A stretch of DNA of 64,000 nt from an uncultured Chloroflexia bacterium (GCA_963790915.1 CAWBQS010000003.1:1603128-1667127), one strand, 5' to 3'. Positions 3,716 to 48,665 are shown, counted from the first letter of the stretch. Numbers and translations are program-made. Notes: generated by a model from the letters alone, not told the origin.

Positions 3716-7182
<3,467 letters not shown>

Positions 7183-34666: not shown

Positions 34667-35995
34667 GTGAACCGGCTCTTCGGCACGGACGGCATCCGTG
34701 GCATCGCCAACGAGGATCTCAAGCCCTCGCTTGCCCATGCCCTGGGGCGCGCCGTGGCGACTCGGCTGGTGGGCCCCGGCGGCGCCATCCTCGTCGGCCA
34801 GGACACGCGTCGCTCCTGCGACATGCTCGTGGCTGCCCTCATGTCCGGCGGCGCCTCTGCGGGTGCGGACGTGCATGTCCTGGGTGTCTGCCCCACGCCG
34901 GCCCTCGCCCACGTCACCGCCGTGGGTCCCTACGAGGCCGGCGTCATGGTCTCCGCCTCGCACAACCCGGCCGACGACAACGGCCTCAAGGTCCTCGACG
35001 GTCGTGGTCTCAAGCTGGACGAGGCGCTCGAGGATGAGCTGGCCACGCTGGTCATGCGCGCCGACGAGCTGGAGCACCCCACCAACTCCGGTCTCGGGCG
35101 CACGGTCGAGGCGCACGCCGCGCTGGATGCGTACCGCGAGCACCGCCTGGGCCTGGCGGCCGGCATCGGCTCCCGCCTGCGTGTCCGCGTCGACTGTGCG
35201 AACGGCTCTGCCTCCCGCCTGGCACGCGACATCCTTGCCGCCAGCGGCGCCACCGTGACGTCGCACTTCGACGCTCCGGATGGCACGAACATCAACCTCG
35301 GCTGCGGCGCCACGGCCCCCGGCGCACTGGCTGCCATCGTGGCCGAGCAGGGCGGCGATGTGGGCTTCTGCCTGGATGGCGACGCCGACCGCTGCGTGGC
35401 GGTCGACGAGCGAGGCCGGATCGTGGACGGTGACCAGCTGCTGGGCATCATCGCCCTAGACCGCCTGGCGCGTGATGCCCTCGCCGAGCGGACGGTCGTC
35501 GTCAGCATCCTCTCGAACGGCGGCCTGGCCCGCGCCGTCGAGGCCGCCGGCGGCCAGATCCTGCGCACGCCCGTGGGAGATCGCCACATCCTCGATTCCA
35601 TGCTCCTCTCCGGCGCCGGGCTGGGTGGCGAGAAGAGCGGCCACGTCATCATCCGCGAGCACACCAATGCCGGGGACGGCATCGTCACGGCGCTGGAGGT
35701 GCTGGCCATCCTGGTGCGCTCCGGCCGGACGCTCTCCGAGCTGGCGGCGGCCATCCCGCTGGACCCGCAGGAGCAGCGCGCCGTGCGCGTCAGGCACAAG
35801 GAGTGGCGCGCCGACCGCGTGCTGGCGAGGGCCGTCGCGGCGGCTGAGCAGGAGCTGGGCAGCATGGGCCGGATCGTGGTGCGGCCCTCCGGCACCGAGC
35901 CTGCCCTCCGGGTCATGGTCGAGGGTCCGGACGCGGTGGTGGTGCGGCGCCTGGCCGATGACCTGGCCGACCTGGCGCGCGAGCGCCTCGCGTAG
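34667..35995 (+). CDS. glmM: phosphoglucosamine mutase
   Basis: GTG 34667 gives VNRLFGTDGIRGIAN; active-site SASHNPADDNG; DGDADR metal loop; 442 aa. Confidence 0.94.
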   Translation: MNRLFGTDGIRGIANEDLKPSLAHALGRAVATRLVGPGGAILVGQDTRRSCDMLVAALMSGGASAGADVHVLGVCPTPALAHVTAVGPYEAGVMVSASHNPADDNGLKVLDGRGLKLDEALEDELATLVMRADELEHPTNSGLGRTVEAHAALDAYREHRLGLAAGIGSRLRVRVDCANGSASRLARDILAASGATVTSHFDAPDGTNINLGCGATAPGALAAIVAEQGGDVGFCLDGDADRCVAVDERGRIVDGDQLLGIIALDRLARDALAERTVVVSILSNGGLARAVEAAGGQILRTPVGDRHILDSMLLSGAGLGGEKSGHVIIREHTNAGDGIVTALEVLAILVRSGRTLSELAAAIPLDPQEQRAVRVRHKEWRADRVLARAVAAAEQELGSMGRIVVRPSGTEPALRVMVEGPDAVVVRRLADDLADLARERLA

Positions 35996-36001
35996 CCGTC
36001 C

Positions 36002-37831
36002 ATGTGCGGCATCGTCGGCTATGTCGGCACGGGGGCGGCGGCTCCCGTGCTCCTCGAAGGGCTGGCACGCCTGGAGTATCGCGGCTACGACTCGGCGGGC
36101 ATCGCCCTGGTCACGGACAGCGGGGACCTGTACGTCCGCAAGATGGCGGGCAAGGTGGCTGAACTGCGGACGTCCCTGGCCGACGGCACGCCGCCCTCGC
36201 GAGCCGGCCTGGGTCATACGCGCTGGGCCACCCACGGCCGCCCGACCGACCTCAACGCGCATCCCCATGCTGACTGCACGGGCGAGCTCGTGGTCATCCA
36301 CAACGGCATCATCGAGAACTTCATGGAGCTGCGCGACGAACTCCAGGCGCGCGGACACACCTTCGCCTCGGAGACCGACACGGAGGCCATCGCCCATCTC
36401 GTCGAGGAGGCGTACCAGGGTGACCTGGCCGTCGCGGTGCGTACCGCGCTGCAGCGCGCGCACGGTGCGTATGCGCTGGCCGTCATCCACAAGGGCGAGC
36501 CGGACCGCGTCGTGGGCGCCCGGATGAACGTGCCACTCATCGTCGGCCTCGGGGACGGCGAGTCCTTCCTGGCCTCCGATGTCGCCGCTGTGGTGGCTCA
36601 CACGCGCCGCGTCATCTACCTCGAGGAAGGCGACGTGGCCGACCTGAGCCCGGCTGGCGTGCGCATCACGGACATGGTCGGCCGCGAGCTGGACCGTCCG
36701 GTGCGCGTGGTGGACTGGGACATCGAGGCTGCCGAGAAGGGCGGCTACGAACACTTCATGCTCAAGGAGATCCACGAGCAGCCCGAGGCCATCCTCGCGG
36801 CCATCACCGGTCGTCTCACCGGACAGCGCATCCGTGTCTCGGAGCTGGCGCCGCTGGCAGACCGCCTCTCCGCCATCGACCGCGTGGAGCTGGTCGCCTG
36901 CGGCAGCGCTGCGTACGCCTCGGCCGTTGCTGCCCAGGCCCTGCAGGCGTGGGCTGGGCTGCCGGCTCGCTGGAACGTGGGCTCCGAGTTCCGCTACGAT
37001 CCGCCGCCGCTCGATGAGCGCACTCTGGTCATCTCGGTGACGCAGTCGGGGGAGACGGCCGACACGCTCGCGCCGACGCGCCTGGCGCGGCAGCGCGGCT
37101 GCCCCATCGTCGCGGTCACCAACACGGTGGGATCGGCCATCACCCGAGAAGCGGACGCCGTGCTCTTCCTGCAGGCCGGGCCGGAGATCGCCGTGGTGGC
37201 CACCAAGACGTACGTGACGCAGGTGGTCACCCTCCTGCTCGTGGCCGCCCAGCTGGCCAAGTCGCGCGGTCGCCTGGATCCGCGCTATGAGGCTGCCCTC
37301 GTGGAGGGCCTGCGCGCCCTGCCGGCCGCCGCCGCTCGTGCCCTCGAGCTCAACGAGGTCCAGGCGCGCGAGCTGGCGCAGCGCTACGTGGGCTCGCGCG
37401 GCTACATGTACGTGGGGCGCGGGGCAACGTACCCGGTGGCCCTCGAGGGCGCCCTCAAGCTCAAGGAGGTGAGCTACGTCCACGCCGAGGGCTACGCTGC
37501 CGGTGAGCTGAAGCACGGACCCATCTCCCTGCTGGACGCTGGGGTGCCCCTGGTGGCCGTGGCCACCCGGTCCGCCGTCCAGGACAAGCTCATCAGCAAC
37601 CTCATGGAGGGCCGCGCCCGCGACGCCCGGGTCATCGCCGTGGCCACCGAGGGCGACGAGCGGATGCGCGCCGTGGCCGACGACCTGCTCTGGGTGCCTG
37701 CCACCCTGGAGCTCCTGAGCCCGGCCGTGGCCATCATCCCGCTGCAGCTCTTCGCCTACCACACGGCCGTGGCGCGTGGCACGGACGTGGACCAGCCGCG
37801 CAACCTGGCCAAGTCCGTGACGGTCGAGTGA
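36002..37831 (+). CDS. glmS: glutamine--fructose-6-phosphate aminotransferase
   Basis: MCGIVGYVG N-terminal nucleophile, two SIS domains, C-terminal KSVTVE; 609 aa. Confidence 0.98.
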   Translation: MCGIVGYVGTGAAAPVLLEGLARLEYRGYDSAGIALVTDSGDLYVRKMAGKVAELRTSLADGTPPSRAGLGHTRWATHGRPTDLNAHPHADCTGELVVIHNGIIENFMELRDELQARGHTFASETDTEAIAHLVEEAYQGDLAVAVRTALQRAHGAYALAVIHKGEPDRVVGARMNVPLIVGLGDGESFLASDVAAVVAHTRRVIYLEEGDVADLSPAGVRITDMVGRELDRPVRVVDWDIEAAEKGGYEHFMLKEIHEQPEAILAAITGRLTGQRIRVSELAPLADRLSAIDRVELVACGSAAYASAVAAQALQAWAGLPARWNVGSEFRYDPPPLDERTLVISVTQSGETADTLAPTRLARQRGCPIVAVTNTVGSAITREADAVLFLQAGPEIAVVATKTYVTQVVTLLLVAAQLAKSRGRLDPRYEAALVEGLRALPAAAARALELNEVQARELAQRYVGSRGYMYVGRGATYPVALEGALKLKEVSYVHAEGYAAGELKHGPISLLDAGVPLVAVATRSAVQDKLISNLMEGRARDARVIAVATEGDERMRAVADDLLWVPATLELLSPAVAIIPLQLFAYHTAVARGTDVDQPRNLAKSVTVE

Positions 37832-38505
37832 TGCGTGACCCGGAGGTGGGCGTCGCGAGCCTTCCGGGCCCGCCGAGCGCGGGCACGACGGAGCTGGGCA
37901 TCGACATCATCCGGGTGGATCGCATCGTGGGGGCCCTGCAGCGCCACGGCCGCCGCTTCCCCCTGCGCATCCTCACGCCCGCTGAAGACGCCTACGTCCG
38001 TGACCGCCCGGAGAACCTGGCCGGCCGCTGGGCGGCCAAAGAGGCCGTCAGCAAGGTGCTCGGCCTGGGAGTCCGTGGCGTGGGCTGGCGCGAGATCGAG
38101 ATCGTCCGCCTGCCCACGGGCCAGCCCACCGTGCGCCTCCATGATCGCGCCCTGCAGCGCGCACAGCAGCTGGGCATGGAGCGCATCGCCGTCTCCATCA
38201 GCCACGAACACGAGTACGCCGTGGCCGTCGCCTTCGGCATCCGCACGCGTGGTGGCGCCTACGTCTTCCCGTTGGACATCGATGGCCGCCTGGACGATCG
38301 AGAGCAGCAGCTCCTGGCCCGCCTGGAACGTCTGCGCACGCTTGACGCGGAAGTGCGCGCCACCGAAGCCGCGGCCGCAGCCGGGCCCGACACCGGGGGC
38401 GCGGGTGGTGCCAGCACGGCCGAGCGCGATGCGGAGCGCGATACCGGCGGCGAGAGCGGGGATGGCCAGAGCGGGGACACCCAGAGCGGGGGCGGCGAGC
38501 CGTGA
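37828..38505 (+). CDS. acpS: holo-ACP synthase with about 95-aa low-complexity C-terminal extension
   Basis: GTG 37828 / ATG 37831 overlap the glmS stop. LGIDIIRVDRI...RWAAKEAVSKVLG...ISHEHEYAVAVA core, then a Gly/Asp/Glu/Ser-rich tail. Confidence 0.88.
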   Translation: MMRDPEVGVASLPGPPSAGTTELGIDIIRVDRIVGALQRHGRRFPLRILTPAEDAYVRDRPENLAGRWAAKEAVSKVLGLGVRGVGWREIEIVRLPTGQPTVRLHDRALQRAQQLGMERIAVSISHEHEYAVAVAFGIRTRGGAYVFPLDIDGRLDDREQQLLARLERLRTLDAEVRATEAAAAAGPDTGGAGGASTAERDAERDTGGESGDGQSGDTQSGGGEP

Positions 38506-39398
38506 GCGCCTTGCGGCCGGAGCCGCTCGACGAGGCCTACGCCACACGACTCGTGCCGCAGCGCGACCGGCGCGGTCACAAGGGCACCTTCGGGCGCGTC
38601 AGCGTCGTGGCTGGCTCCTTCGACTACGCCGGTGCCGCCCTGATGAGCGGCAGCGCCGCGCTGCGCGCAGGGGCCGGGCTCGTCAGCCTCTGGCTACCCG
38701 CCTCCCTCCGGGCGGTGCTGGCTGGGCGCGTCCCCGAGCTCATCACCCGGGCCCTGCCCGAGGTGGCGCCTGGCGAGGTCGACGCTCCCGGGGCTGCCGC
38801 CCTCGTCGTCGCCGACCCCTGCGACGCCCTGCTCATCGGCCCCGGCCTGGCCACGAGCTGGGGCACGACGCAGCTGGTGCTGTCCCTGCTCGGAATGGCG
38901 GGGCCGCCATCGGTCGTGGATGCCGGCGCGTTCGAAGCCCTGGCAGGGACCCCCGGCTGGGCCGACCGCCGCGCCCGTGAGCTCGTGCTGACGCCGCATC
39001 CCGGCGAGCTGCGGCGCCTGGGCCGCGACCCTGGCACGAGTGACGAGGAGCGCCTGGCCTGTGCCGCTCGCGCCGCTGCCGAGTGGCGGGCGGTCGTCGT
39101 CCTCAAGGGTGCGCATACCGTCATCGCCGATCCCGGGGGTAGCCTGCGGGTGGCGCCTTTCAGCCTGCCGCTGCTGGCCAGTGCTGGCAGCGGCGACATC
39201 CTGGCCGGCGTCATCGCGGGGCTCCTCGCGCAGGGTCTGGCCGCGCGGGATGCTGCTGCGCTGGGCGTCTACCTCCATGCCCGGGCCGCCGAGCGCCTGG
39301 GGGCGGAGCTCGGGGATGCCGGCCTGATGGCCACCGACCTCCTGGCGGAGATCCCCCGCGAGCGGCGACACCTCCGCGACCTCGCAGCGGCCTCGTGA
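38502..39398 (+). CDS. nnrD: ADP-dependent NAD(P)H-hydrate dehydratase (YjeF C-terminal-type, stand-alone)
   Basis: GTGA overlap with acpS; HKGTFGRVSVVAGS..GAALMSGSAALRAGAGLV, TPHPGELRRL, VLKGAHTVI, GSGDILAGVIAGLLAQG. Confidence 0.9.
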   Translation: MSALRPEPLDEAYATRLVPQRDRRGHKGTFGRVSVVAGSFDYAGAALMSGSAALRAGAGLVSLWLPASLRAVLAGRVPELITRALPEVAPGEVDAPGAAALVVADPCDALLIGPGLATSWGTTQLVLSLLGMAGPPSVVDAGAFEALAGTPGWADRRARELVLTPHPGELRRLGRDPGTSDEERLACAARAAAEWRAVVVLKGAHTVIADPGGSLRVAPFSLPLLASAGSGDILAGVIAGLLAQGLAARDAAALGVYLHARAAERLGAELGDAGLMATDLLAEIPRERRHLRDLAAAS

Positions 39399-40648
39399 CC
39401 GCCGAGCAGCAACGCCCGCTCCGCCGGGGCGCCTGGCTGGAGATCGACCTCGCGGCGCTGCGCCACAACGTCGCCGTGCTGCGCAGCATCATCGGCCCGG
39501 CGGGCCTGGCGCCGGTGATCAAGGCTGAGGCCTACGGGCATGGGCTGCTGGCCGTGGGTCGCGCCCTCGCCGACGTCGTCGACGCCTTCTGCGTGGCCAC
39601 GCTCGACGAGGCCATGGCACTGCGCCGGGAGACTGCCGCCCGGACCCTGCTGCTCTACCCGGTGCCCCCCGAGGCGGCCGCCGACGCCATCGCCAGCGGC
39701 GCTGAACTGACGGTCATGTCAGGGGCCGACCTGCGCGCGCTGTTGGCCGCCCTGCCCGTCGCCCCGGATGGGGCTCGGCCGCCGGTGCCGATCCAGCTGG
39801 CCCTGGAGACCGGTCTCAACCGCGGCGGCCTGCTGGCGGGCGACGCGCTCGACCTGGCGGCCATCATCGCGGCCGAGCCACGCCTCCGGCTGGCCGGAGC
39901 CTGGTCACACCTGGCCAGGTCGGATGACCCGGAGACCGCTGACCGCCAGGTGGCGCGATTCGAGGCGACGCTGGCGCAGCTGGCTGGTGCGGGCACGCCG
40001 GTCCCGGAGCGACACCTGGCGGCCACCGGCGCTGTGCTCGCGGCGACGAGCCCGCTCTACGACCTGGTGCGCCCGGGACTCGCCCTCTACGGCGTCGGCG
40101 ACCCGGACCTGCCCATCGCGCCTGCGCTCGCCGACGCCGCTGCGGCCCTGCGCACGGCCATGGCGCTCAAGGCCCGCGCGGCCGCCTACTGCGAGGTGCC
40201 GACCGGGGACGGCGTGGGCTATGGGGGTCGCTGGCGCGCCGAGCGTCCCAGCCGCATCGCCATCCTGCCGGTCGGCTATGCAGACGGCTACCTGCGCGGT
40301 GCCCAGCCAGGTGCTGTGGCCCTCGTGCGCGGCACCCGCGTGCCGCTCGTAGGCGTCATCTCGATGGACGCTCTGGCCGTGGACGTCACCGACCTGCCCG
40401 GCCTCGACGAACGCGACGAGTTCGTGCTCATGGGCAGCCAGGGCCACGAGCGCATCACGGCCGGCGAACTGGCGCGCGCGCGCAACACCATCCCCTGGGA
40501 GGTCCTCTCCAGCATGGCCGCGCGCCTGGACCGGGTGTACCATGCGCAAGCCGGTGGGGCGGACGGGCTCCCAGCCGCCGGCGCCGTGCCACACGTGCTG
40601 CCGCACATCGCGCGACCCGGGGATAGAGGGCCCGGACGTGCAGGATGA
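39395..40648 (+). CDS. alr: alanine racemase
   Basis: GTGA overlap with nnrD; AWLEIDLAALRHN, PLP-lysine motif VIKAEAYGHG, VGYADGY, ISMD. Confidence 0.95.
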   Translation: MTAEQQRPLRRGAWLEIDLAALRHNVAVLRSIIGPAGLAPVIKAEAYGHGLLAVGRALADVVDAFCVATLDEAMALRRETAARTLLLYPVPPEAAADAIASGAELTVMSGADLRALLAALPVAPDGARPPVPIQLALETGLNRGGLLAGDALDLAAIIAAEPRLRLAGAWSHLARSDDPETADRQVARFEATLAQLAGAGTPVPERHLAATGAVLAATSPLYDLVRPGLALYGVGDPDLPIAPALADAAAALRTAMALKARAAAYCEVPTGDGVGYGGRWRAERPSRIAILPVGYADGYLRGAQPGAVALVRGTRVPLVGVISMDALAVDVTDLPGLDERDEFVLMGSQGHERITAGELARARNTIPWEVLSSMAARLDRVYHAQAGGADGLPAAGAVPHVLPHIARPGDRGPGRAG

Positions 40649-40681
40649 TGGGCTGGCGCATGCCCAGAGGAGGGGTTCGGG

Positions 40682-41002
40682 TTGCTTCGATCGCCCGCCA
40701 CGCATGATCTTCCGCTCGATCCGCGGGACGTCGGCCGCCTCGATGATGAGGACGCCGTCGAAGCGGTCGCGCGTGTCATCCAGCTGCGCGGTGCGACCGT
40801 GCCTGCCGTCTTCTTCCTGGAGGCCAACCGCGGCCTGGGGACCCTCGACGGCCTGGGCATGCTGTTGTTCGACCCGGTCCTTCGCGGTGTGTTCGGTGGC
40901 GACGTCCCGGGCGCTCGCAGCCTGCTCGCCGACGACGATGGCATCGAGCGCCTCATCGATCGACTCGAGGAGCTCGAGGCGGAGGTCGGGCTCGACGCCT
41001 GA
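40682..41002 (+). CDS. hypothetical small acidic protein (106 aa), cassette gene A
   Basis: TTG 40682 is 8 nt after GAGGAGG (40667-40673). Almost every codon ends in G/C, whereas the overlapping ORF 40542..41054 does not. No family recognised. Confidence 0.6.
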   Translation: MLRSPATHDLPLDPRDVGRLDDEDAVEAVARVIQLRGATVPAVFFLEANRGLGTLDGLGMLLFDPVLRGVFGGDVPGARSLLADDDGIERLIDRLEELEAEVGLDA

Positions 41003-41050
41003 GCCGTCCGCGGCACCGGGACACCGGCTTCACGGCTACCATTCCTCTCC

Positions 41051-42679
41051 GTGACCCCGGACGCTCCTTCCTTCTTCACGCTCGACCGCGGCACAGCGAG
41101 CACGTCGGCCGCCCTCATCGCGCCCGTCGAGGGCCGCTACCGCATGTTGGCGGCCGGCTCCGCGCCCTCCTCCTCCGACCCGTCCGGGCTCCTGGAGGAC
41201 CTGGTGGCCCGCATCGAGCGCACGGATCCCACGCTGGCTGGGCCGCTCGGCGACTGGCGAACGTGGGCTCGCCTGGAGGTGCGCGGCACCGCGGCTCCGC
41301 GCGCCTGCCTGGTCGCAGCCACGCCGGAGACCGGCAGCCTCCTGGAGAGGGCCTTCACGGCTGGTGGCTGGCAGGTCGGCGCCCGATTCTTCGGCCCGGA
41401 CCCGGACCTGCTGGCCTTCGGCAGCGCCTGTCTGCGACCCGGCATGGATGCCGTCGTCGTTGCGGTGCGTGAGTCGGCCGAGCCCGAGGAACGTGATCGT
41501 GCACGCCTCCTCTGGCCGCGTGCCGGGTCGCTGGCTCGCCTCCGCGACGACCTGGCCGTCATCGCCTGCGGTCCCCTCATGGAGCGTCCGGAAGGGATCA
41601 CCGAGGATCGACTCTTCGCGTTGCCGGCCCCGGACACCGTGGTCGCGGGCGGCGAGTCACTCCTGCAGCAGGCGAGCTCCCAGGTCGCCCTTCACCTCGT
41701 CTCGGCTGGGGCCGCGGGCGGCCAGGACAGCCGCGCGGCGCTGCGCCGCTCCATCGCCTCGCTGGCGGTGCTGCTGGACAAGCGCATCGACGCCATCGAG
41801 GTCGGCGCCGCGGCCGGGTCGCGCACCGTGGCCGGCGCCGACGGAGAGACCCGCCAGGCGGTCCTGGCCACGGCCGGCCTGCTGCCGGCGACACTGCTCG
41901 ACGACGACGACGCCGCCGAGGCGGTGCTGCGCTGGTCGTCCCTGGCCGAGGACCCGGCCACCCGGCTCGACCGCCTGCGCGAGCTGGTCCTGCATCCCTG
42001 GGGCTCCTTCGACAGCGATGGGCTGCACCTCCGGCTGGCCTGCCTGCGGGCTGCCCTGGAGCGTATGCACACGGCCTGGGAGGGGATGGCTGGCCCTGGC
42101 CACCCGGAGGAGCCAGCGGACGTCATCGTCCTCTGCGGCGGCGGCTTCGCGCTCCTGCCCGCGACCGCGGCAGCGCTGGCGATCACCGACGCCATCCGGC
42201 GTCCTGGCGCCTTCACGCTGCTGCACGACCATGCCCGGGTGCTGGGGCCACTCGGTGCCCTGCCGGTCGAGGGCGACCGCCGCCGGCTGCTCGCCGATCT
42301 CATGGACGACTGCCTGCTGCCCATCGGGAGTGCCCTGCTCACCGGCACGCTGGAGGAGAGCGGCCGCGACCCCGGCCAGGACGCCGGCCACGTCGCCATC
42401 TCCACGCCGCTCTTCGATGATGAGCTGCCGCTGGAGCCAGGACAGCTGCGCCTCGTCGACCTGCCGCCCGGCATCGTTGCCCGGCTGGAGATCGATCCCG
42501 GGGCCGGCAGCGTCCTTGGCGTGTCAGGTCAGCGCCTCGGCCTGGAGGTCAGCGGAGGCCTTGGTGGCTTCCTCCTCGATACGAGGGCCATCCCCCTGGA
42601 GCTGCCGAGTGCTGCCGAGGCGCGGCGCGCCCAGCTCGAGACGTGGGAAGCACCGGTCTGGGCGGAGGGCGATCGATGA
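41051..42679 (+). CDS. hypothetical 542-aa protein with actin-like (ASKHA) / MutL-GlmL-like motifs, cassette gene B
   Basis: ORF 41051..42679 (GTG start). N-terminal [17 protein letters not shown], later DVIVLCGGGFALLP, C-terminal GGLGGFLLDTRAIPLELP. Family assignment rests on motif memory only. Confidence 0.65.
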   Translation: MTPDAPSFFTLDRGTASTSAALIAPVEGRYRMLAAGSAPSSSDPSGLLEDLVARIERTDPTLAGPLGDWRTWARLEVRGTAAPRACLVAATPETGSLLERAFTAGGWQVGARFFGPDPDLLAFGSACLRPGMDAVVVAVRESAEPEERDRARLLWPRAGSLARLRDDLAVIACGPLMERPEGITEDRLFALPAPDTVVAGGESLLQQASSQVALHLVSAGAAGGQDSRAALRRSIASLAVLLDKRIDAIEVGAAAGSRTVAGADGETRQAVLATAGLLPATLLDDDDAAEAVLRWSSLAEDPATRLDRLRELVLHPWGSFDSDGLHLRLACLRAALERMHTAWEGMAGPGHPEEPADVIVLCGGGFALLPATAAALAITDAIRRPGAFTLLHDHARVLGPLGALPVEGDRRRLLADLMDDCLLPIGSALLTGTLEESGRDPGQDAGHVAISTPLFDDELPLEPGQLRLVDLPPGIVARLEIDPGAGSVLGVSGQRLGLEVSGGLGGFLLDTRAIPLELPSAAEARRAQLETWEAPVWAEGDR

Positions 42680-43737
42680 GCCTGCCGACCGCGCCCGGAA
42701 GCGACCCGCTGCGATTCGTGGCGCCGGCGACGATCCCGCAGCCTGGTCGCCTGCTGCGCTTCCACCTCGATCTCGCGGACCGGCCGCTCGTGTTTCCCGG
42801 GCAGCGCGTCGATATCGGGCAGCCGCTCATCGAGCACTTCCGTGACCAGGAGGCCGTGGAGATCCCGACCACGGCCGCCGTCGTGGGCATGCGCCCCGGC
42901 GAGATCCTCGACAGCGTGCCCTTGCCGTCATCCGGCCGGCTCGGCCGCAAGGCGTCGCTGGGCACCTACCGCGCGCGCGTGCTCGAGCACGGCCGGGACG
43001 GCACGACACGCCTGGTGGCCGGCAACGGCAGCAGCATGATCATCGCGCCGGCCGGCGGCGTCGTCGAGGCGGTGCTGCCTGGTCGGGTCGACCTGCGCGC
43101 CGAGGGTCTCGCCATCGGGGCCTCGGTGGGTTGGGGCCGGCCCGCGATCGGCCACATCGTCATCGTCGCTGACGCGCCCGATGCGGAGGTTCCCGCCTCC
43201 CGCATCGACGTGAGCGCTGCTGGCGCCATCCTCGTGGCGGGGGCCCGACTCGACATCGAAGCCATGACCCGGGCGCGCGCCATCGGCGTTGCGGGCATCA
43301 TCACCGGCGCCGTGGCCAGCCGTCACCTGCGCCAGCTGGTGTCGTCGGAGGTCCGCCAGCAGGCGGCGCTCCACGCCGCGGCGCCCTTCGGCCTGCTGGC
43401 GCTGGATGGCTACGGCCGGCTGCCCATCCCCGCCTACCTGTGGGACCTGCTGGTGGCCGCCCAGGGGCGCCCGGCCGGCATCCACCCGGACGCGCGTTGC
43501 CTGATCATCGGTGGCGACCCGGCGCCGCTGCTGGCCGCGGCCGACCGCCTGGCCGGCACCGTGCGCGTGACCAGTGGAGAGCATCGCGATCGGGAGGGCC
43601 GGCTGGTGGGTCTCGCTGGTGCCCGCCGCTGGCCCGGTGGCGCCTACGCGCCCGGCGGCTTCGTGGAGGTCGTATCGGCCACGGGAAGCGTCGAGCGGCT
43701 CTGCCTGCCGCTGCCGCTCCTGGAGCGGTTCGGCTAG
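42676..43737 (+). CDS. hypothetical 353-aa protein with barrel-sandwich-hybrid-like segments, cassette gene C
   Basis: ATG 42676 overlaps the gene B stop (ATGA). LVFPGQRVDIGQPLIEH and MIIAPAGGVVEAVLPG motifs. Ends 6 nt before tsaE. Confidence 0.65.
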   Translation: MSLPTAPGSDPLRFVAPATIPQPGRLLRFHLDLADRPLVFPGQRVDIGQPLIEHFRDQEAVEIPTTAAVVGMRPGEILDSVPLPSSGRLGRKASLGTYRARVLEHGRDGTTRLVAGNGSSMIIAPAGGVVEAVLPGRVDLRAEGLAIGASVGWGRPAIGHIVIVADAPDAEVPASRIDVSAAGAILVAGARLDIEAMTRARAIGVAGIITGAVASRHLRQLVSSEVRQQAALHAAAPFGLLALDGYGRLPIPAYLWDLLVAAQGRPAGIHPDARCLIIGGDPAPLLAAADRLAGTVRVTSGEHRDREGRLVGLAGARRWPGGAYAPGGFVEVVSATGSVERLCLPLPLLERFG

Positions 43738-43743
43738 GACGCC

Positions 43744-44256
43744 ATGGCAGGAGCGGCAGCCTCGGCCGCGGACGCGCTGGTGGCGTGGCACACCTTCAGC
43801 GGTTCGGCGGCGGCCACGCGTGACCTCGCGGCGGCACTCGCCGTGGTGGCTCGGCGCGGCGATCGGCTGGCGCTCATCGGCCCGCTGGGCGCTGGCAAGA
43901 CGCAGTTCGCCAAGGGCTTCGCCGTCGGCCTGGGCATCGTCGATGTCGTCAACAGCCCCAGCTTCACGCTCATGGCCGAGTACGAGGGCCGCCTGCCGCT
44001 CTACCACCAGGACCTCTACCGCTTGAGCGGGACCGCCGAGGCCCTGGCCGGCGGTCTCCTCGATGAGCGCCAGGCCGATGGCGTGACCCTCGCCGAATGG
44101 GGCGATCGCCTGGGCGACGATCCCGACCCGGAACAGGTCGACGTCGTCCTCATGCCCCTGGGCGACGTGCAGCGACGCGTGGAGCTGCGCGGTCGGGGCG
44201 AGGCCGCGGCTCGCTACGCCGCCGCTGCGCGGGCCTGGTCGGAGGTGCGGCGGTGA
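43744..44256 (+). CDS. tsaE: tRNA t6A37 biosynthesis ATPase TsaE
   Basis: P-loop GPLGAGKTQFAKG, SPSFTLMAEY, HQDLYRL motifs. Confidence 0.92.
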   Translation: MAGAAASAADALVAWHTFSGSAAATRDLAAALAVVARRGDRLALIGPLGAGKTQFAKGFAVGLGIVDVVNSPSFTLMAEYEGRLPLYHQDLYRLSGTAEALAGGLLDERQADGVTLAEWGDRLGDDPDPEQVDVVLMPLGDVQRRVELRGRGEAAARYAAAARAWSEVRR

Positions 44257-44987
44257 GCGGCACCGGCGAGCCGATCCCTGGCGGTGCCCCGACGGGAGCC
44301 CCTGCCGGCGCTGCCCTCGGTGGCATCTGCCTGGCCATCGACACCGCGACGCGCAGCACCGTCGTGGCCGTCGGGAGCGGCATCCCGCTGGCCAGCAGCC
44401 GGCGGGAGGTGCGGCCACGCCGTGGCTCGGAGCTGCTGGAGCAGGTGGACGAGGTCCTCACGGCTGCCGGGCTGACCATCGACGACGTGTCCGCCGTGGC
44501 CGTGGGCAGCGGTCCGGGCTCGTTCACCGGCCTGCGCGTCGGGCTGGCCGCCGCAAAGCTGCTGGCCTACACGCGCCACCTGCCGCTCATCGGCGTGCCC
44601 TCCGGCGAGGCCTTGCGACGGGCAGCCATCGACGCCGGCGCACCGGCGGACCTGGTCGTCGTGCTGCCGGCCGGCGCGCGCGACCACTACCTCGTGCGAC
44701 CCGGGCAGGACCCGCGGATGGTGTCGCCGGGCGGCCTGGAGGAGGCGCTCGCCGGGGCGCCGGCCCTGGCCGTGGACGTCGATGCCGCGCTCGTCGGCGA
44801 GGACGCCCTGCGCGTCGGGCGAGCGGCCCTGGACGGCCTGGGCGCGGCGCTCATGACCATCGCCGCCGAACGCCTGGCCGCGGGGCGGCTGGATGATCCG
44901 GCAGGGCTGGTGCCCGTCTACGTCGCCCTGCCGCGCGGGGTGCGCCACACCCCGGAGGACCTGGGATGGTCGCCCGACCTCCAGTGA
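44253..44987 (+). CDS. tsaB: tRNA t6A37 biosynthesis protein TsaB
   Basis: GTGA overlap with tsaE; LAIDTATRSTVVAV, GSGPGSFTGLRVGLAAAKLLA. Confidence 0.9.
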   Translation: MSGTGEPIPGGAPTGAPAGAALGGICLAIDTATRSTVVAVGSGIPLASSRREVRPRRGSELLEQVDEVLTAAGLTIDDVSAVAVGSGPGSFTGLRVGLAAAKLLAYTRHLPLIGVPSGEALRRAAIDAGAPADLVVVLPAGARDHYLVRPGQDPRMVSPGGLEEALAGAPALAVDVDAALVGEDALRVGRAALDGLGAALMTIAAERLAAGRLDDPAGLVPVYVALPRGVRHTPEDLGWSPDLQ

Positions 44988-45634
44988 TGCTCCGGGTGGA
45001 GCCCATGCGCCTCGAGGACATCCCAGCCGTGCACGCCATCGAGAGTGCCTCGTTCCCCACGCCCTGGCCGCCCTACGCCTTCCGCGGCGAGCTGGAGTCC
45101 AACCCCATGGCCCACTACCTGGTGGCGCGCGCCGGAGAGCGAGTCGTCGCCTACGCGGGCATCTGGCTGATGGTCGACGAGGCGCACGTGACGACCTTCG
45201 CCGTCCTGCCGGCGTACCGCCGGCGGGGCTTGGGCGGTCTCCTCCTCTCCGAGCTCATCGAGCTGGCCGCCGTGCTGGGCGCCACGGTCATGACGCTGGA
45301 GGTCCGACTCAGCAACGCCGGCGCCCGCGCCCTCTACCAGCGCTTCGGTTTCCACCCTGTGGGCGTCCGGCCGCGCTACTACACGGACAACGCTGAGGAC
45401 GCCCTCATCATGACCACGGAGCCCCTGGACCTGCCGCGCATGGCCGGCCTGCGGCGCCGCATGGCCGAGCGCTACGCCGCAGACGTGCTGGCCGAGGACC
45501 CCGGGTGGGCGCCAGACCCCGGCGGCGAGAGCGGCGAGAGCGGCGAGAGCGGCGAGAGCGGCGAGAGCGGCGGGGATGGCGACGCGCCCGCGGCCATCGA
45601 TCGCACCGAACCCAGGCGCGAGCCTCGTCGATGA
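44987..45634 (+). CDS. rimI: ribosomal-protein-alanine N-acetyltransferase RimI (GNAT) with repeat-containing tail
   Basis: ATG 44987 overlaps the tsaB stop (TGATG). IESASFPTPW, AVLPAYRRRGLGGLLL (acetyl-CoA motif), LEVRLSNAGARALYQRFGF. Confidence 0.9.
   Translation: MLRVEPMRLEDIPAVHAIESASFPTPWPPYAFRGELESNPMAHYLVARAGERVVAYAGIWLMVDEAHVTTFAVLPAYRRRGLGGLLLSELIELAAVLGATVMTLEVRLSNAGARALYQRFGFHPVGVRPRYYTDNAEDALIMTTEPLDLPRMAGLRRRMAERYAADVLAEDPGWAPDPGGESGESGESGESGESGGDGDAPAAIDRTEPRREPRR
45524..45568 (+). repeat. perfect tandem repeat (GGCGAGAGC)x5, in frame in rimI, encoding (Gly-Glu-Ser)x5
   Basis: Five identical 9-nt units counted at 45524-45532, 45533-45541, 45542-45550, 45551-45559 and 45560-45568. 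Confidence 0.97.
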
Positions 45635-46722
45635 GCCGCCGCGAGGGCTGGATCCTGGCCGTGGAGACGTCCTGCGACGAGACCGGCGTGGCCGTCGTGG
45701 AGCGCGGCCGGCGCATCGTCGCCGACGTCGTGGCCAGCCAGGTGATGCTGCACGCGAGCACCGGGGGCATCGTGCCGGAGGTGGCTGCGCGGGCCCACCT
45801 GCGCTGGCTCATCCCGGTGCTGGAGGAGGCCCGCCGGCGGGCGGGCCTGGAGCGCTGGTCGGACGTCGAGGCGGTGGCCGTCACCGAGGGTCCCGGACTG
45901 GCCGGCTCGCTCATGGTCGGCATCACGATGGCCAAGACCCTGGCCTGGAGCGAGGGCCTGCCGCTGGTGCCGGTCAACCACCTCGAGGGCCATCTCTACG
46001 CTGCTTGGTTGCTGGACCCGGACGAAGAGGAGCGTCCGGAGCCGCGCTTCCCGCTGGTGGCCCTCGTCGTCAGCGGTGGCCATACCGCGTTGCTGCAGAT
46101 GCCCGACCACCTGCGCTTCCGGCTCCTGGGACAGTCCGTGGACGACGCCGCGGGCGAAGCGTTCGACAAGGTCGGCAGGCTGCTCGGCCTGCCCTATCCG
46201 GGTGGGCCCGCGATCATGGCGGCCGCCGCCACGGCCCGGGTGCACGACCGGCGCTTCCCGCGGGCGTGGCTGGGCGACTCCTGGGACTTCTCCTTCAGCG
46301 GCCTCAAGACCGCCGCCCGACGCGCCGTGGGTGAGGCCCTGGGCTGCTCCCCGGAGGAGCGTGAGCTGGACGGCGCCGCGCTGCCCGCCGACCTTGTCGC
46401 CGAGCTCGCCTGGGCCTTCCAGGAGTCGGTCGTGGACGTCATCGCCAGCAAGACGCTGCGGGCGGCCGCCGACACCGGGGCACGCAGCATCGTCATGGGC
46501 GGCGGCGTGGCCGCCAACGCGGTCCTCCGCGAGCGGCTGGCCGAGGGCGCGCGACGCCTGGACATCCCGCTCGTCGTGCCGCGGCCCGGCCTCTGCACCG
46601 ACAACGGCGCGATGATCGGGGCGGCCGGCTGGCGGCGTTTCGTGGCCGGCGTGCGCGCCGACCGCTCCCTGGACGCACGACCCTCGCTGCGCCTGGCCGA
46701 TCGAGCCACCGATGACCGCTGA
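45631..46722 (+). CDS. tsaD: tRNA N6-adenosine threonylcarbamoyltransferase TsaD
   Basis: ATGA overlap with rimI; ILAVETSCDETGVAVV, NHLEGHL, VVSGGHT, GGGVAAN. Confidence 0.95.
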   Translation: MSRREGWILAVETSCDETGVAVVERGRRIVADVVASQVMLHASTGGIVPEVAARAHLRWLIPVLEEARRRAGLERWSDVEAVAVTEGPGLAGSLMVGITMAKTLAWSEGLPLVPVNHLEGHLYAAWLLDPDEEERPEPRFPLVALVVSGGHTALLQMPDHLRFRLLGQSVDDAAGEAFDKVGRLLGLPYPGGPAIMAAAATARVHDRRFPRAWLGDSWDFSFSGLKTAARRAVGEALGCSPEERELDGAALPADLVAELAWAFQESVVDVIASKTLRAAADTGARSIVMGGGVAANAVLRERLAEGARRLDIPLVVPRPGLCTDNGAMIGAAGWRRFVAGVRADRSLDARPSLRLADRATDDR

Positions 46723-47575
46723 CCCCCGCCAGCTCGACGCCACGCACCTGGGACCGGAGATGGTCCAGCGCTACCTGCGCCGGCACGGACTGGCGGCACG
46801 CCGCTCGCTCTCGCAGAACCATCTCGCGGACGGCGCGGTCCTGGAGCGCATCGTGGCCACCGCGGCCGTGGAGCCCGGAGAGCACGTCGTGGAGGTCGGT
46901 CCCGGCCTGGGCATCCTCACCGCCGCCCTGCTGAGTGCCGGGGCGCAGGTCACGGCCGTGGAGCTGGACGAACGCCTGGTCGAGCACCTGCGCCTGCGTT
47001 TCGAGGGTGAGTCGCGCCTGCGGCTGCTGGCGGCTGACTTCCTTGACGTGGAGCTCGCGAGCGTGGCGAGCGTCCCCTGGGCGCTGGTGGCCAACGTGCC
47101 CTACCACATCACCAGCCCCATCCTGCACCGCGTCCTTGGCGCGGAGCCGCGGCCGACGCGCTTCGTGCTCATGGTCCAGCGCGAGGTCGCCGAGCGCATC
47201 GCGGCGCCGCCCGGCGGCATGAGCTACCTGTCCGTGTTCGTCCAGTACCACGCCGACGTGCGCATGGCCTTCGTCGTGCCGGCCAGCGCCTTCGAGCCGT
47301 CCCCCGCCGTCGACTCCGCGATCCTCGTCGGTACCACTCGACCCCGCCGCCTGCCGCCGGACGCCGAGGACGAGCTGTGGCGGCTCGTCCAGGCCGCCTT
47401 CCGGGAGCGCCGCAAGATGCTCCACAACGTCCTGCTGCGACAGCTGCCGGGGCTGCAGCGCGACCGACTGGCGGCGGCCCTGGCGCAATGCGCCATCGCC
47501 CCTGACCGGCGGCCGCAGACCCTGTCCGTGGACGAATGGCTCGCGCTGCACGACGCACTGGGGCCGCTGCCGTGA
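46712..47575 (+). CDS. rsmA: 16S rRNA (adenine1518/1519-N6)-dimethyltransferase
   Basis: LSQNHLADGAVLERIV, SAM motif VVEVGPGLGILT, NVPYHITSPIL. Confidence 0.94.
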   Translation: MTADPRQLDATHLGPEMVQRYLRRHGLAARRSLSQNHLADGAVLERIVATAAVEPGEHVVEVGPGLGILTAALLSAGAQVTAVELDERLVEHLRLRFEGESRLRLLAADFLDVELASVASVPWALVANVPYHITSPILHRVLGAEPRPTRFVLMVQREVAERIAAPPGGMSYLSVFVQYHADVRMAFVVPASAFEPSPAVDSAILVGTTRPRRLPPDAEDELWRLVQAAFRERRKMLHNVLLRQLPGLQRDRLAAALAQCAIAPDRRPQTLSVDEWLALHDALGPLP

Positions 47576-47609
47576 ACGGCCGTCCCCCGGCGGGAGGGCG
47601 GACACGTCG

Positions 47610-48665
47610 ATGACACGGCGCGCCGTCACCGTGTCCTGGGGGGAGGCCACCGCCAAGGTCAACCTGGCCCTGGCCGTCACCGGCCGCCGCCCGGACGGCT
47701 ATCACGAGCTGCGCTCCGTGTTCCTGCGACTGGTCCTGCACGACCATCTCGAGGTGCGGCGCGCCGCTGACCCGGCTGCCCCGGACCGCCTGGACATCGA
47801 TGGCGACCCCGTGCTGGCCACGCCGGACAACCTCGTGCTGCGGGCCGCCGCCGCGCTGCGGGCCACGCTCCGCACGGCGGCCGGGGTGATGCCCGACGGG
47901 GGTTCCGGCGGCGGACCGGACCTCGGGGCGGCCCTCGTCTGCCCATCCCTCTCGATCCGCCTCCACAAGCACATCCCCCATGCCGCCGGGCTGGGTGGCG
48001 GCAGCGCCGACGCCGCGGCGACGCTGGGCCTGGCCGCACAGGCCTGGGGGCTCGCCGCCGATGATGGCCGTCCGGCCGCGATCGCTGCCAGGCTGGGCTC
48101 GGACGTGCCCTTCTTCGCGGCTGGGCATGCGGCCGCCCTGGTGACCGGCGTGGGCGATGTCATCGACGCGCTGCCGGCGCCCACGTCGCAGGCCGGCATC
48201 CTGCTCGTGACACCCGCGCAGCGGCTCTCCACGGCGGCCGTCTTCGCTGCCCACGACGCCCTGGCGAGCCCTGGGGATCCGGCCGCGGCAGCGCCAGCGG
48301 CCGGCGTCATGGCGGCAGCGCCTTCCGCAGCGGTGACGGCAGTCGACCGCCTCGCGACGCTCCTGCGGGCCGGGCTTGACGGCCCGGGCCTGGCCGGCCA
48401 GGGTGCCAGCCTGCGTGACGCCAACGACCTCTGGGCGGCCGCCTGCCACTGCTCGCCCGGCCTCGCGGACGCCCGCGATGAGCTGGAGCGATGCCTCGGA
48501 CAGCCGGTGCTGCTGACCGGCTCCGGGCCCACCCTCGTAGCCGTCTATCCTTCACCAGGGGCGGCCGGCGCGGCTGCCGCTGACCTCGAGGCTTCGCGGC
48601 CGGCGGCACTCGAGGGCGCCACCATCAACGCCACCGCGAGTGCGACCAGTGGAGGATCATCGTGA
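47610..48665 (+). CDS. ispE: 4-diphosphocytidyl-2-C-methyl-D-erythritol kinase (enlarged, Ala/Gly-rich inserts)
   Basis: AKVNLALAVTGRRPDGYHEL, GHMP motif HKHIPHAAGLGGGSADAAA, GSDVPFF, LTGSGPT. Confidence 0.9.
   Translation: MTRRAVTVSWGEATAKVNLALAVTGRRPDGYHELRSVFLRLVLHDHLEVRRAADPAAPDRLDIDGDPVLATPDNLVLRAAAALRATLRTAAGVMPDGGSGGGPDLGAALVCPSLSIRLHKHIPHAAGLGGGSADAAATLGLAAQAWGLAADDGRPAAIAARLGSDVPFFAAGHAAALVTGVGDVIDALPAPTSQAGILLVTPAQRLSTAAVFAAHDALASPGDPAAAAPAAGVMAAAPSAAVTAVDRLATLLRAGLDGPGLAGQGASLRDANDLWAAACHCSPGLADARDELERCLGQPVLLTGSGPTLVAVYPSPGAAGAAAADLEASRPAALEGATINATASATSGGSS

Follow-up and report, generated by a model that had tools for sequence, protein, structure and literature searches.

A conserved three-gene module between alr and tsaE in Limnocylindria, predicted to comprise the soluble components of a seven-gene Chloroflexota system with a GlmL-like ASKHA protein

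The 64,000-nt stretch of DNA analysed here (the window; GCA_963790915.1, CAWBQS010000003.1:1603128-1667127) derives from an uncultured Chloroflexia bacterium and carries three tightly linked genes, A, B and C, located between alr (alanine racemase) and tsaE at positions 40,682 to 43,737, counted from the first letter of the window. Judged by sequence comparison, the three correspond to the soluble components (g1, g6 and g7) of a seven-gene system conserved in Chloroflexota. B is predicted to be a nucleotide-binding subunit with the ASKHA fold, and is a very divergent relative of glutamate mutase L (GlmL, also named MutL). The trio had been singled out in an initial annotation, made from the sequence alone, as a block without obvious function interrupting the synteny of its neighbours. 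It is a strongly conserved three-gene module of traceable origin and not a synteny anomaly; its function we infer.

The genes and the features described within them all lie on the plus strand. Gene A (40682..41002, 106 aa), called as an open reading frame (ORF) and supported by its G+C content at third codon positions (GC3) and by homologues, has a TTG start preceded by a GAGGAGG Shine-Dalgarno sequence (40667..40673) that ends 8 nt before the start codon. The spacer is kept in the relative L090 except for one inserted base. A 48-nt spacer (41003..41050) leads to the GTG start of gene B (41051..42679, 542 aa), which is supported by ORF calling, structure prediction and profiles, and the stop codon of B overlaps the ATG of gene C (42676..43737, 353 aa) as ATGA, with GGAGG located 7 nt upstream of the C start. 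C is supported by ORF calling, homologues and structure prediction; a longer version would begin at GTG 42643, and the homologues favour the ATG. Between the end of C and the tsaE ATG at 43744 lie 6 nt. These ORFs, with their coordinates, starts, spacers and the ATGA overlap, had been given in the initial annotation and are all present in the sequence. The start of B (GTG 41051) lacks a Shine-Dalgarno-like motif, and directly upstream of it lies CCTCTCC, the complement of such a motif; this stretch, within the 3′ part of the A-B spacer, is kept in L090. GGAGG-type sites precede both A and C.

GC3 is 0.81 for A, 0.87 for B and 0.90 for C, beside 0.87-0.93 for glmS, acpS, nnrD, alr, tsaE, tsaB, rimI and tsaD, and a frame plot changes phase exactly at the B/C junction. 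The base composition of the trio is like that of its flanks (~0.71-0.76 GC). A and B are acidic, with predicted isoelectric points of 4.2 (22 D+E against 10 K+R) and 4.7 respectively, and C is basic (9.2). No convincing transmembrane segment is predicted in A, B or C.

The seven-gene cluster was found on eight independent contigs by locating the genes of GlmL-like g6 proteins. It begins with g1, encoding a small, soluble, acidic protein of 63-90 aa that is homologous to A. The second gene is in every case g2, encoding a DUF6754 (PF20539) protein of ~250 aa with a transmembrane segment at each end. There follow g3 (a polytopic membrane protein of ~205 aa), g4 (a variable bitopic protein of 261-1265 aa, often with an N-terminal double zinc ribbon) and g5 (a polytopic membrane protein of 214-238 aa with the motifs LGDNP..RLA.H and GTL.PQ). 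The cluster is completed by g6 (562-606 aa), the GlmL-like homologue of B, and g7 (338-366 aa), the soluble homologue of C. Where the system is complete, g1 and the beginning of the DUF6754 gene overlap. C or its counterpart always follows directly after B, mostly with overlapping stop and start codons.

Profile hidden Markov models (HMMs) of g1-g7, built from five clusters, were run on the six-frame translation of the window. The g1 model matched A (E 7e-12), the g6 model matched B (E 6e-37) and the g7 model matched C (E 4e-21), so that the trio consists of g1, g6 and g7 homologues in that order on one strand; the models of g2-g5 matched nothing in the 64 kb. Alignment of the Limnocylindria families with their counterparts from outside Limnocylindria (hhalign) gave 97.3% probability for A against g1 (E 2e-11), 100% for B against g6 (E 1e-42 over 518 columns) and 99.8% for C against g7 (E 1e-28). 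A also matches the g1 protein of locus L081 directly (blastp E 4.5e-9). In two Limnocylindria-type loci, L081 (annotated as Candidatus Limnocylindria) and L089 (75.7% GC), the full set of seven lies exactly between alr and tsaE. Since both carry all seven genes, the trio of the window represents a reduced descendant at the same site, from which the four membrane-protein genes have been lost or relocated. A metagenome scan with the Limnocylindria g5 protein, which reaches close relatives only, returned one locus, and this was a complete cluster.

Outside Limnocylindria the full system is found in varied neighbourhoods that contain neither alr nor tsa genes. The role in peptidoglycan-precursor supply or in tRNA N6-threonylcarbamoyladenosine (t6A) modification suggested by the context of the trio is not supported, given these quite different surroundings in other Chloroflexota. 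All components carry NCBI names of the type 'hypothetical' or 'DUF6754 domain-containing'. Our searches of the literature found no mention of DUF6754, and those on GlmL and reactivases returned general reviews only; a DUF6754 profile matched nothing in the PDB. The searchable literature contains no description of the complete system, in which a GlmL-type ASKHA protein is joined by new partners. The window shares the ancestry of the DUF6754 neighbourhoods, but it contains no DUF6754 gene, and the DUF6754 domain is itself without known function. Three further genes recur beside the full clusters outside Limnocylindria. A divergently transcribed DAGK_cat/YegS-type lipid kinase gene adjoins the cluster in L082, L091 and L092; L082, L084 and L091 have a PspA/IM30 gene a few genes downstream; and an extra gene of 172-218 aa with no Pfam match follows g7 in L084, L091 and L092.

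Homologues of A, B and C were sought in a collection of 5.8 billion proteins, which yielded hundreds for each ORF (242 for A and 285 for C). Those with a named source all come from Chloroflexota or from Candidatus Limnocylindrales metagenome-assembled genomes, and none carries a functional name in public sources, all being 'hypothetical protein'. B has relatives in at least 286 species-level genomes. A scan of loci with one genome per GTDB species retained 78 species-level Chloroflexota/Limnocylindria loci, with identities from 72% down to 33%, and these keep the colinear order nnrD-alr-A-B-C-tsaE-tsaB-rimI-tsaD as far as each contig extends. The three genes are constant neighbours in these loci. 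A, B and C are under purifying selection. Ratios of non-synonymous to synonymous substitution (dN/dS; Nei-Gojobori, against L090 at 93% protein identity) are 0.036 for A and 0.119 for B; the first 228 nt of C give 0.18 and the last 636 nt of alr 0.195. The ORFs are intact and keep invariant residues across 33% to 93% identity. With the homologues, the colinearity and dN/dS far below 1, the coding calls and the co-occurrence are solid, and pseudogenisation is excluded. The coding signal that had been noted from third-position bias is likewise real, borne out by GC3, by the phase change at the B/C junction, by the homologues and by dN/dS.

The view that the trio breaks a normal adjacency of alr and tsaE is not upheld by the synteny survey, because alr and tsaE are separated by genes in every relative recovered. 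Four arrangements of the interval occur. In the clade of the window it holds A-B-C, in deeper Limnocylindria a macro-domain gene followed by A-B-C, in L086 B-C alone with the alr stop overlapping the B start, and in L081 and L089 the block of seven genes. B-C is the only pair common to all four. The A-B-C block is class-wide and ancient and is not a local insertion. The macro-domain gene (PF01661, 176-184 aa) was located between alr and the A homologue at L077:5131-5661, L087:7113-7667 and L028 ~4900-5590; it is absent from the clade of the window, where the alr-A gap is 33 nt. At L086:2475-5314 the A gene is missing from the site; alr runs with its stop codon into the start of P0458, the B homologue, and the C homologue is directly next.

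The initial annotation could place none of the three products in a characterised family with confidence, and direct scans bear this out: neither Pfam nor NCBIfam gave a significant match to B or C, and no family was detected for A. B and C could be placed through intermediates. For B, the sequence alone retrieved nothing useful from the PDB, the family profile retrieved only designed Rossmann proteins and a marginal match to the FtsA N-terminus, and Pfam scans of single family members gave MutL in 1 of 36 at a sub-threshold E of 0.21. An exhaustive HMMER search of 1.84 billion representative proteins with the B profile (E<=1e-3) gave 807 matches, and the proteins that reach E 1e-17 to 1e-24 are 560-606 aa long. 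These match the Pfam model MutL (PF13941; glutamate mutase L, GlmL) over the whole of its 450 positions, with E 1e-46 to 1e-75, and one match to the B profile is annotated 'glutamate mutase L [Candidatus Limnocylindria bacterium]'. Scores against PF13941, the Pfam gathering threshold of which is 27 bits, are 158-254 bits for the g6 proteins from outside Limnocylindria, ~86 bits for P0464 of L081 and 23 bits for P0458 of L086, and B of the window gives no match. The g6 profile matched no GlmL-like solved structure among PDB sequences. From the profile homology to g6, and its position outside all curated thresholds, B is best regarded as a very divergent member of the GlmL lineage. No mutase gene was found in the examined loci, comprising the relatives of the window and the seven-gene clusters, and B is not a glutamate-mutase accessory protein.

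The AlphaFold2 model of B, built on 34 homologues, has a mean pLDDT (predicted local distance difference test score) of 89.2 and a pTM (predicted template modelling score) of 0.89. Compared with the PDB by Foldseek it gives 162 matches at E<=1e-3, led by ASKHA-fold proteins with probability ~1.0, including type III pantothenate kinase (1e-7), PilM, FtsA, N-methylhydantoinase, acetophenone/acetone carboxylase, Hsp70/DnaK, acetate kinase and Ppx/GppA. As modelled, B has an ASKHA fold, based upon two RNase-H-like domains. Domain I carries an inserted subdomain (residues 84-191), domain II spans residues ~246-420, and these are followed by a beta-rich domain (422-510) and a terminal helix (522-537). 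The alpha/beta (Rossmann-like) insert (41300..41623), delimited from the predicted secondary structure, has a weak profile match to designed Rossmann-type proteins, and its region falls within the Pfam MutL model in the g6 orthologues. The C-terminal beta-rich domain and terminal helix (residues 422-537, 42314..42661), delimited by predicted secondary structure and motif alignment, lie beyond the 450-position MutL model, and the signature V.GG..G[LI]..D.R..P..LP is common to the C-termini of B and g6.

Putative nucleotide-binding loops of the fold are recognisable in the family alignments and the joint alignments with g6. Residues 12-15 (D-R-G-T; 41084..41095) form the putative phosphate-1 loop, in which G14 is invariant and D12 nearly so. 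Residues 249-259 (E-V-G-A-A-A-G-S-R-T-V; 41795..41827) correspond to the phosphate-2 loop, with G252 and R258 invariant. The nearly invariant residues 363-364 (G-G; 42137..42142) occupy the position of the adenosine-binding motif. With the phosphate-1, phosphate-2 and adenosine glycine loops retained, B is predicted to be a nucleotide-binding subunit. It resembles GlmL/MutL (PF13941; NF040745; TIGR01319) in the ASKHA fold, in a DxG[ST] loop at the N-terminal end, after which comes a P-[ST]-T-type strand, and in the inserted alpha/beta subdomain. It differs from them in that the C-termini of B and g6 are extended by a further domain, ~110 residues long and marked by a separate signature, and in that no glutamate mutase or other B12 mutase lies nearby, the partners being A/g1 and C/g7 together with four membrane proteins in the full system.

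C is composed of three predicted domains. Its AlphaFold2 model is of fair quality (pLDDT 82.7) but resembles no known structure strongly; Foldseek ranks T. maritima NusG (E 5e-5, TM-score 0.15) highest, together with eS4, which contains a KOW domain. The sequence alone gave nothing useful against the PDB. The profile of C with g7 places a split sandwich-barrel hybrid (lipoyl/biotinyl-like) domain at residues ~26-142 (42751..43101), with matches to an E2 lipoyl domain (E 3e-4) and to the hybrid-motif insert of RNA polymerase beta' (E 5e-4 to 1e-2). It contains the motifs D-R-P-L-V..G..V..G.P and P...G.V. Several C/g7 members give sub-threshold Pfam matches of the same kind, RnfC_N (in 4 of 36) and Biotin_lipoyl/BSH. 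There is a single lysine in the whole of C and no conserved carrier lysine, the consensus of the hairpin being G.P[IL].E[RH]; the domain is therefore probably a relative of the hybrid motif and not a cofactor carrier.

The alpha/beta middle domain (residues ~157-290, 43144..43545), defined from the family alignments, is the best-conserved block of C, with the consensus IDV..AGAILV.G.R.D.E...RARA.GV.G.I.G. D178, G183, R191, E195 and R199-A-R-A are among its invariant residues, and the conserved stretch at R199 runs on as R199-A-R-A-x-G204. Foldseek found no significant structural match to it in the PDB. Residues 219-235 (43330-43380) form an insert specific to Limnocylindria, ASEARQ.AALH, in which S224, R227 and Q228 are invariant. 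The insert has an AlphaFold confidence <50 and is missing from g7 of other Chloroflexota. Similarity of C to S66 LD-carboxypeptidases and PA-domain peptidases has non-significant E values of 0.05-0.14, and it was rejected as a sign of a role in peptidoglycan. The C-terminal region (residues ~295-351, 43558..43728; V-R-V..G...G.EG...) is a candidate KOW/SH3-like beta domain, suggested by Pfam, profile and Foldseek comparison. Against Pfam KOW (PF00467) C of the window scores 12.8 bits for a cut-off of 22.3; sub-threshold KOW matches occur in 6 of 36 members of the family (best E 0.008), and the C/g7 profile matches the KOW regions of uL24, Spt5 and NusG in the PDB with E 3e-3 to 2e-2.

A is the best conserved of the three proteins. 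Its core consensus is VE.VAREIQLRG..PAV.FLEA.R....LG..MLFFDPVLRG.FGG...LADD.GIE.LI.RLEE, arranged as a helix-RPYRP-helix core with a conserved acidic C-terminus and an invariant final DA. The failure to detect a family extends to Pfam scans made member by member. Sub-threshold matches to Pfam NIT in 9 of 36 members, seen in the single-member scans of the trio families, are probably spurious.

By analogy with better-known ASKHA proteins, B and C, together with A where it is present, may form an ATP-driven chaperone, switch or remodelling module. We favour this reading tentatively, at a little under an even chance. B and C would form a stoichiometric complex, a pairing favoured by the ATGA overlap of their genes and by their charges, B being acidic and C basic. 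Binding and hydrolysis of ATP in B would power a cycle of conformational changes such as is ascribed to GlmL, DdrA, EutA and Hsp70, and the outcome would be a partner protein opened or remodelled; no small molecule would be chemically converted. The adaptor or the regulated partner would be C, which combines hybrid-barrel, alpha/beta and KOW-like domains. A, a small acidic helical protein that is translationally coupled to the DUF6754 protein in the full systems, may be retained here as a binding partner of the B-C pair, inherited from the membrane link. In the lineage of the window the module would act as a soluble housekeeping factor, or would dock on membrane subunits encoded elsewhere.

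Two known systems offer models for such a cycle. The reactivating chaperones DdrA-DdrB (diol/glycerol dehydratase reactivase) and EutA consist of a large ASKHA ATPase and a small acidic subunit, with a presumed ATP-driven opening of the partner. The likeness to a large ASKHA protein encoded with a small acidic protein serves as a lead; DdrA, DdrB and EutA were matched neither by sequence nor significantly by structure, genes for a dehydratase, an ethanolamine lyase or a microcompartment are absent from the surroundings, and these systems have no counterpart of C. Hsp70/DnaK shares the domain order of an ASKHA nucleotide-binding part, a beta-rich domain and a terminal helix, and full-length Hsp70 is matched by Foldseek at E 5e-6 to 5e-5. 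The TM-scores are however ~0.22-0.27 and the probabilities below those of PilM and CoaX, there is no sequence similarity, and no J-domain or GrpE-like partner is present.

Several observations weigh against the remodelling module. The leading Foldseek matches of B, at E 1e-7 to 1e-5, have TM-scores of just 0.2-0.3, and B misses the PF13941 threshold and those of all curated families. Even g6 scores only 77 bits against the NCBIfam GlmL equivalog NF040745, for which the cut-off is 475. The acidic residue of the phosphate-2 loop is D in g6 and E or D in most B proteins; because a few orthologues have S, V or H there, hydrolysis may not be universal. The function of GlmL itself is experimentally unsettled, so the comparison with a reactivase leans on a weakly characterised relative. 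Lastly, the top structural neighbours of B include PilM and FtsA, which are polymer-forming or membrane-associated and would suit a filament equally well.

The trio might alternatively still be the cytoplasmic part of a membrane machine, with g2-g5 moved elsewhere in the genome and A-B-C docking there as before. The strong conservation of A (dN/dS 0.036) would fit this, as would the overlap of g1 with the DUF6754 start, which suggests a membrane partner, and the g6 C-terminal signature still carried by B. We consider it unlikely, though deserving of some weight, since no g2-g5 homologue occurs in the window, the scan for g5 among close relatives reached a single locus with the cluster complete, B has diverged past detection by Pfam MutL in a way that fits a changed set of partners, and A too has been dropped in one lineage (L086). 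Somewhat less probable still is a cytoskeletal or positioning device for the cell envelope, in which B would be an actin-like polymer former with C and A as adaptors. PilM and FtsA are among its best Foldseek neighbours (E 2e-7 to 1e-5), and the ancestral g6, like PilM, is encoded with small and membrane proteins, the latter four in number. Full systems lie near PspA/IM30, a RodZ-like gene, or Mur ligase or GlmU-like genes, although some of these contigs may be related and the observations are not independent. Set against this, B groups by sequence with GlmL/MutL, and a review of the actin superfamily puts glutamate mutase among the non-polymerising members (PMC5597319). The TM-scores to PilM and FtsA are low, no PilN, PilO, PilP or FtsZ-related partner or FtsZ-binding context is present, and the window has no membrane partners.

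The position of the trio raises the further idea that it serves its neighbours, as a GlmL-like reactivating chaperone for Alr, a pyridoxal phosphate enzyme, or as an accessory of t6A synthesis by TsaB-TsaD-TsaE. Every Limnocylindria locus keeps the same position between alr and tsaE, with no terminator detected, and TsaB and TsaD are likewise ASKHA proteins. Ornithine fermentation clusters contain GlmL-like genes alongside those for aminomutases and racemases, and NCBIfam holds a model named 'GlmL-related ornithine degradation protein'. Reactivation of Alr had been considered from adjacency alone and was demoted, since the seven-gene system exists elsewhere in Chloroflexota without alr, and also without tsa genes. 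No B12-dependent mutase adjoins any examined copy, and the alr-tsaE region, a supraoperon of general housekeeping genes, takes other inserts such as the macro-domain gene; service to the neighbours is accordingly improbable. That the trio is what decay has left over of the seven-gene system, or a recent mobile or defence cassette, in either case with no current role, is scarcely credible. Four of the seven ancestral genes have indeed gone from the locus, but the remaining ORFs are intact, with residues that stay invariant from 33% to 93% identity and dN/dS of 0.04-0.18, and they match their flanks in composition. They occupy the same chromosomal site in the 78 species-level loci, no PADLOC defence model matched A, B, C or g1-g7 of L082 at E<=0.01, and no relatives were found on viral contigs. 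The fixed site, the selection and these two negative results contradict the leftover or cassette.

With the remodelling module kept as the preferred reading of the trio, the history of the whole system can be drawn more boldly. The g1-g7 genes could encode a new Chloroflexota membrane machine, powered by a GlmL-type ASKHA ATPase instead of a P-loop or ATP-binding cassette (ABC) protein, from which the soluble core A-B-C was freed in most Limnocylindria and re-used as a housekeeping remodelling factor in the supraoperon for cell-wall precursors and t6A. Taken in full, this scenario is a speculative one and probably does not hold as it stands.

The flanking genes lie outside the system. Upstream, alr (39395..40648, plus strand) marks the conserved insertion site, preceded by glmS, acpS and nnrD; downstream, tsaE (43744..44256, plus strand) is followed by tsaB, rimI, tsaD, ksgA and ispE. 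These were identified from the Pfam domains of the syntenic locus L001 and by tblastn. No sigma-70-like promoter or intrinsic terminator was found at 35500-48000, a scan that is weak to uninformative in a genome of 73% GC. The missing sites are consistent with co-transcription of the gene run, as weak evidence. A tRNA gene at 36-109 is the sole Rfam match at gathering threshold in the window. Two of the neighbouring genes have repetitive 3′ ends. That of rimI, just upstream of tsaD, contains a perfect 9-nt tandem repeat, GCGGCGAGA, in 5.7 copies (45522-45572), encoding a (G-E-S)n tail. That of acpS (37828-38505) contains a 15-nt tandem repeat at 38448-38496 (3.3 copies, 76% matches) that yields a Gly/Ser/acidic tail, and the acpS ORF is 225 aa compared with 125-186 aa in L081, L086 and L001. 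Downstream of ispE/ridA in L001, a glmU-like region (L001:17835-19287) is called as separate NTP_transferase (183 aa) and Hexapep (286 aa) genes. The same region in L081 is one gene of 458 aa, and the split in L001 may be real or may result from an assembly indel.

To our knowledge, the only known setting of GlmL/MutL-type ASKHA proteins is beside B12-dependent mutases, as accessory genes of unexplained purpose. The branch described here, paired with a hybrid-barrel/KOW protein, forms the fixed core of a system of seven genes, four of which encode membrane proteins and none a mutase. It also provides a caution for annotation, in that the lack of a Pfam hit here reflects divergence and not a lack of relatives. 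The window and its relatives constitute a natural experiment, in which four membrane-protein genes were dropped from the locus and three soluble genes were kept under selection. Because the membrane genes are gone from the locus yet selection on the trio is at least as strong as on alanine racemase, the soluble proteins must act alone or with distant partners. Three soluble proteins offer a tractable entry into an opaque protein family and into an uncultured class of soil and freshwater bacteria. If the ASKHA-powered membrane machine should prove true, the large GlmL family would gain a second and more widespread role.

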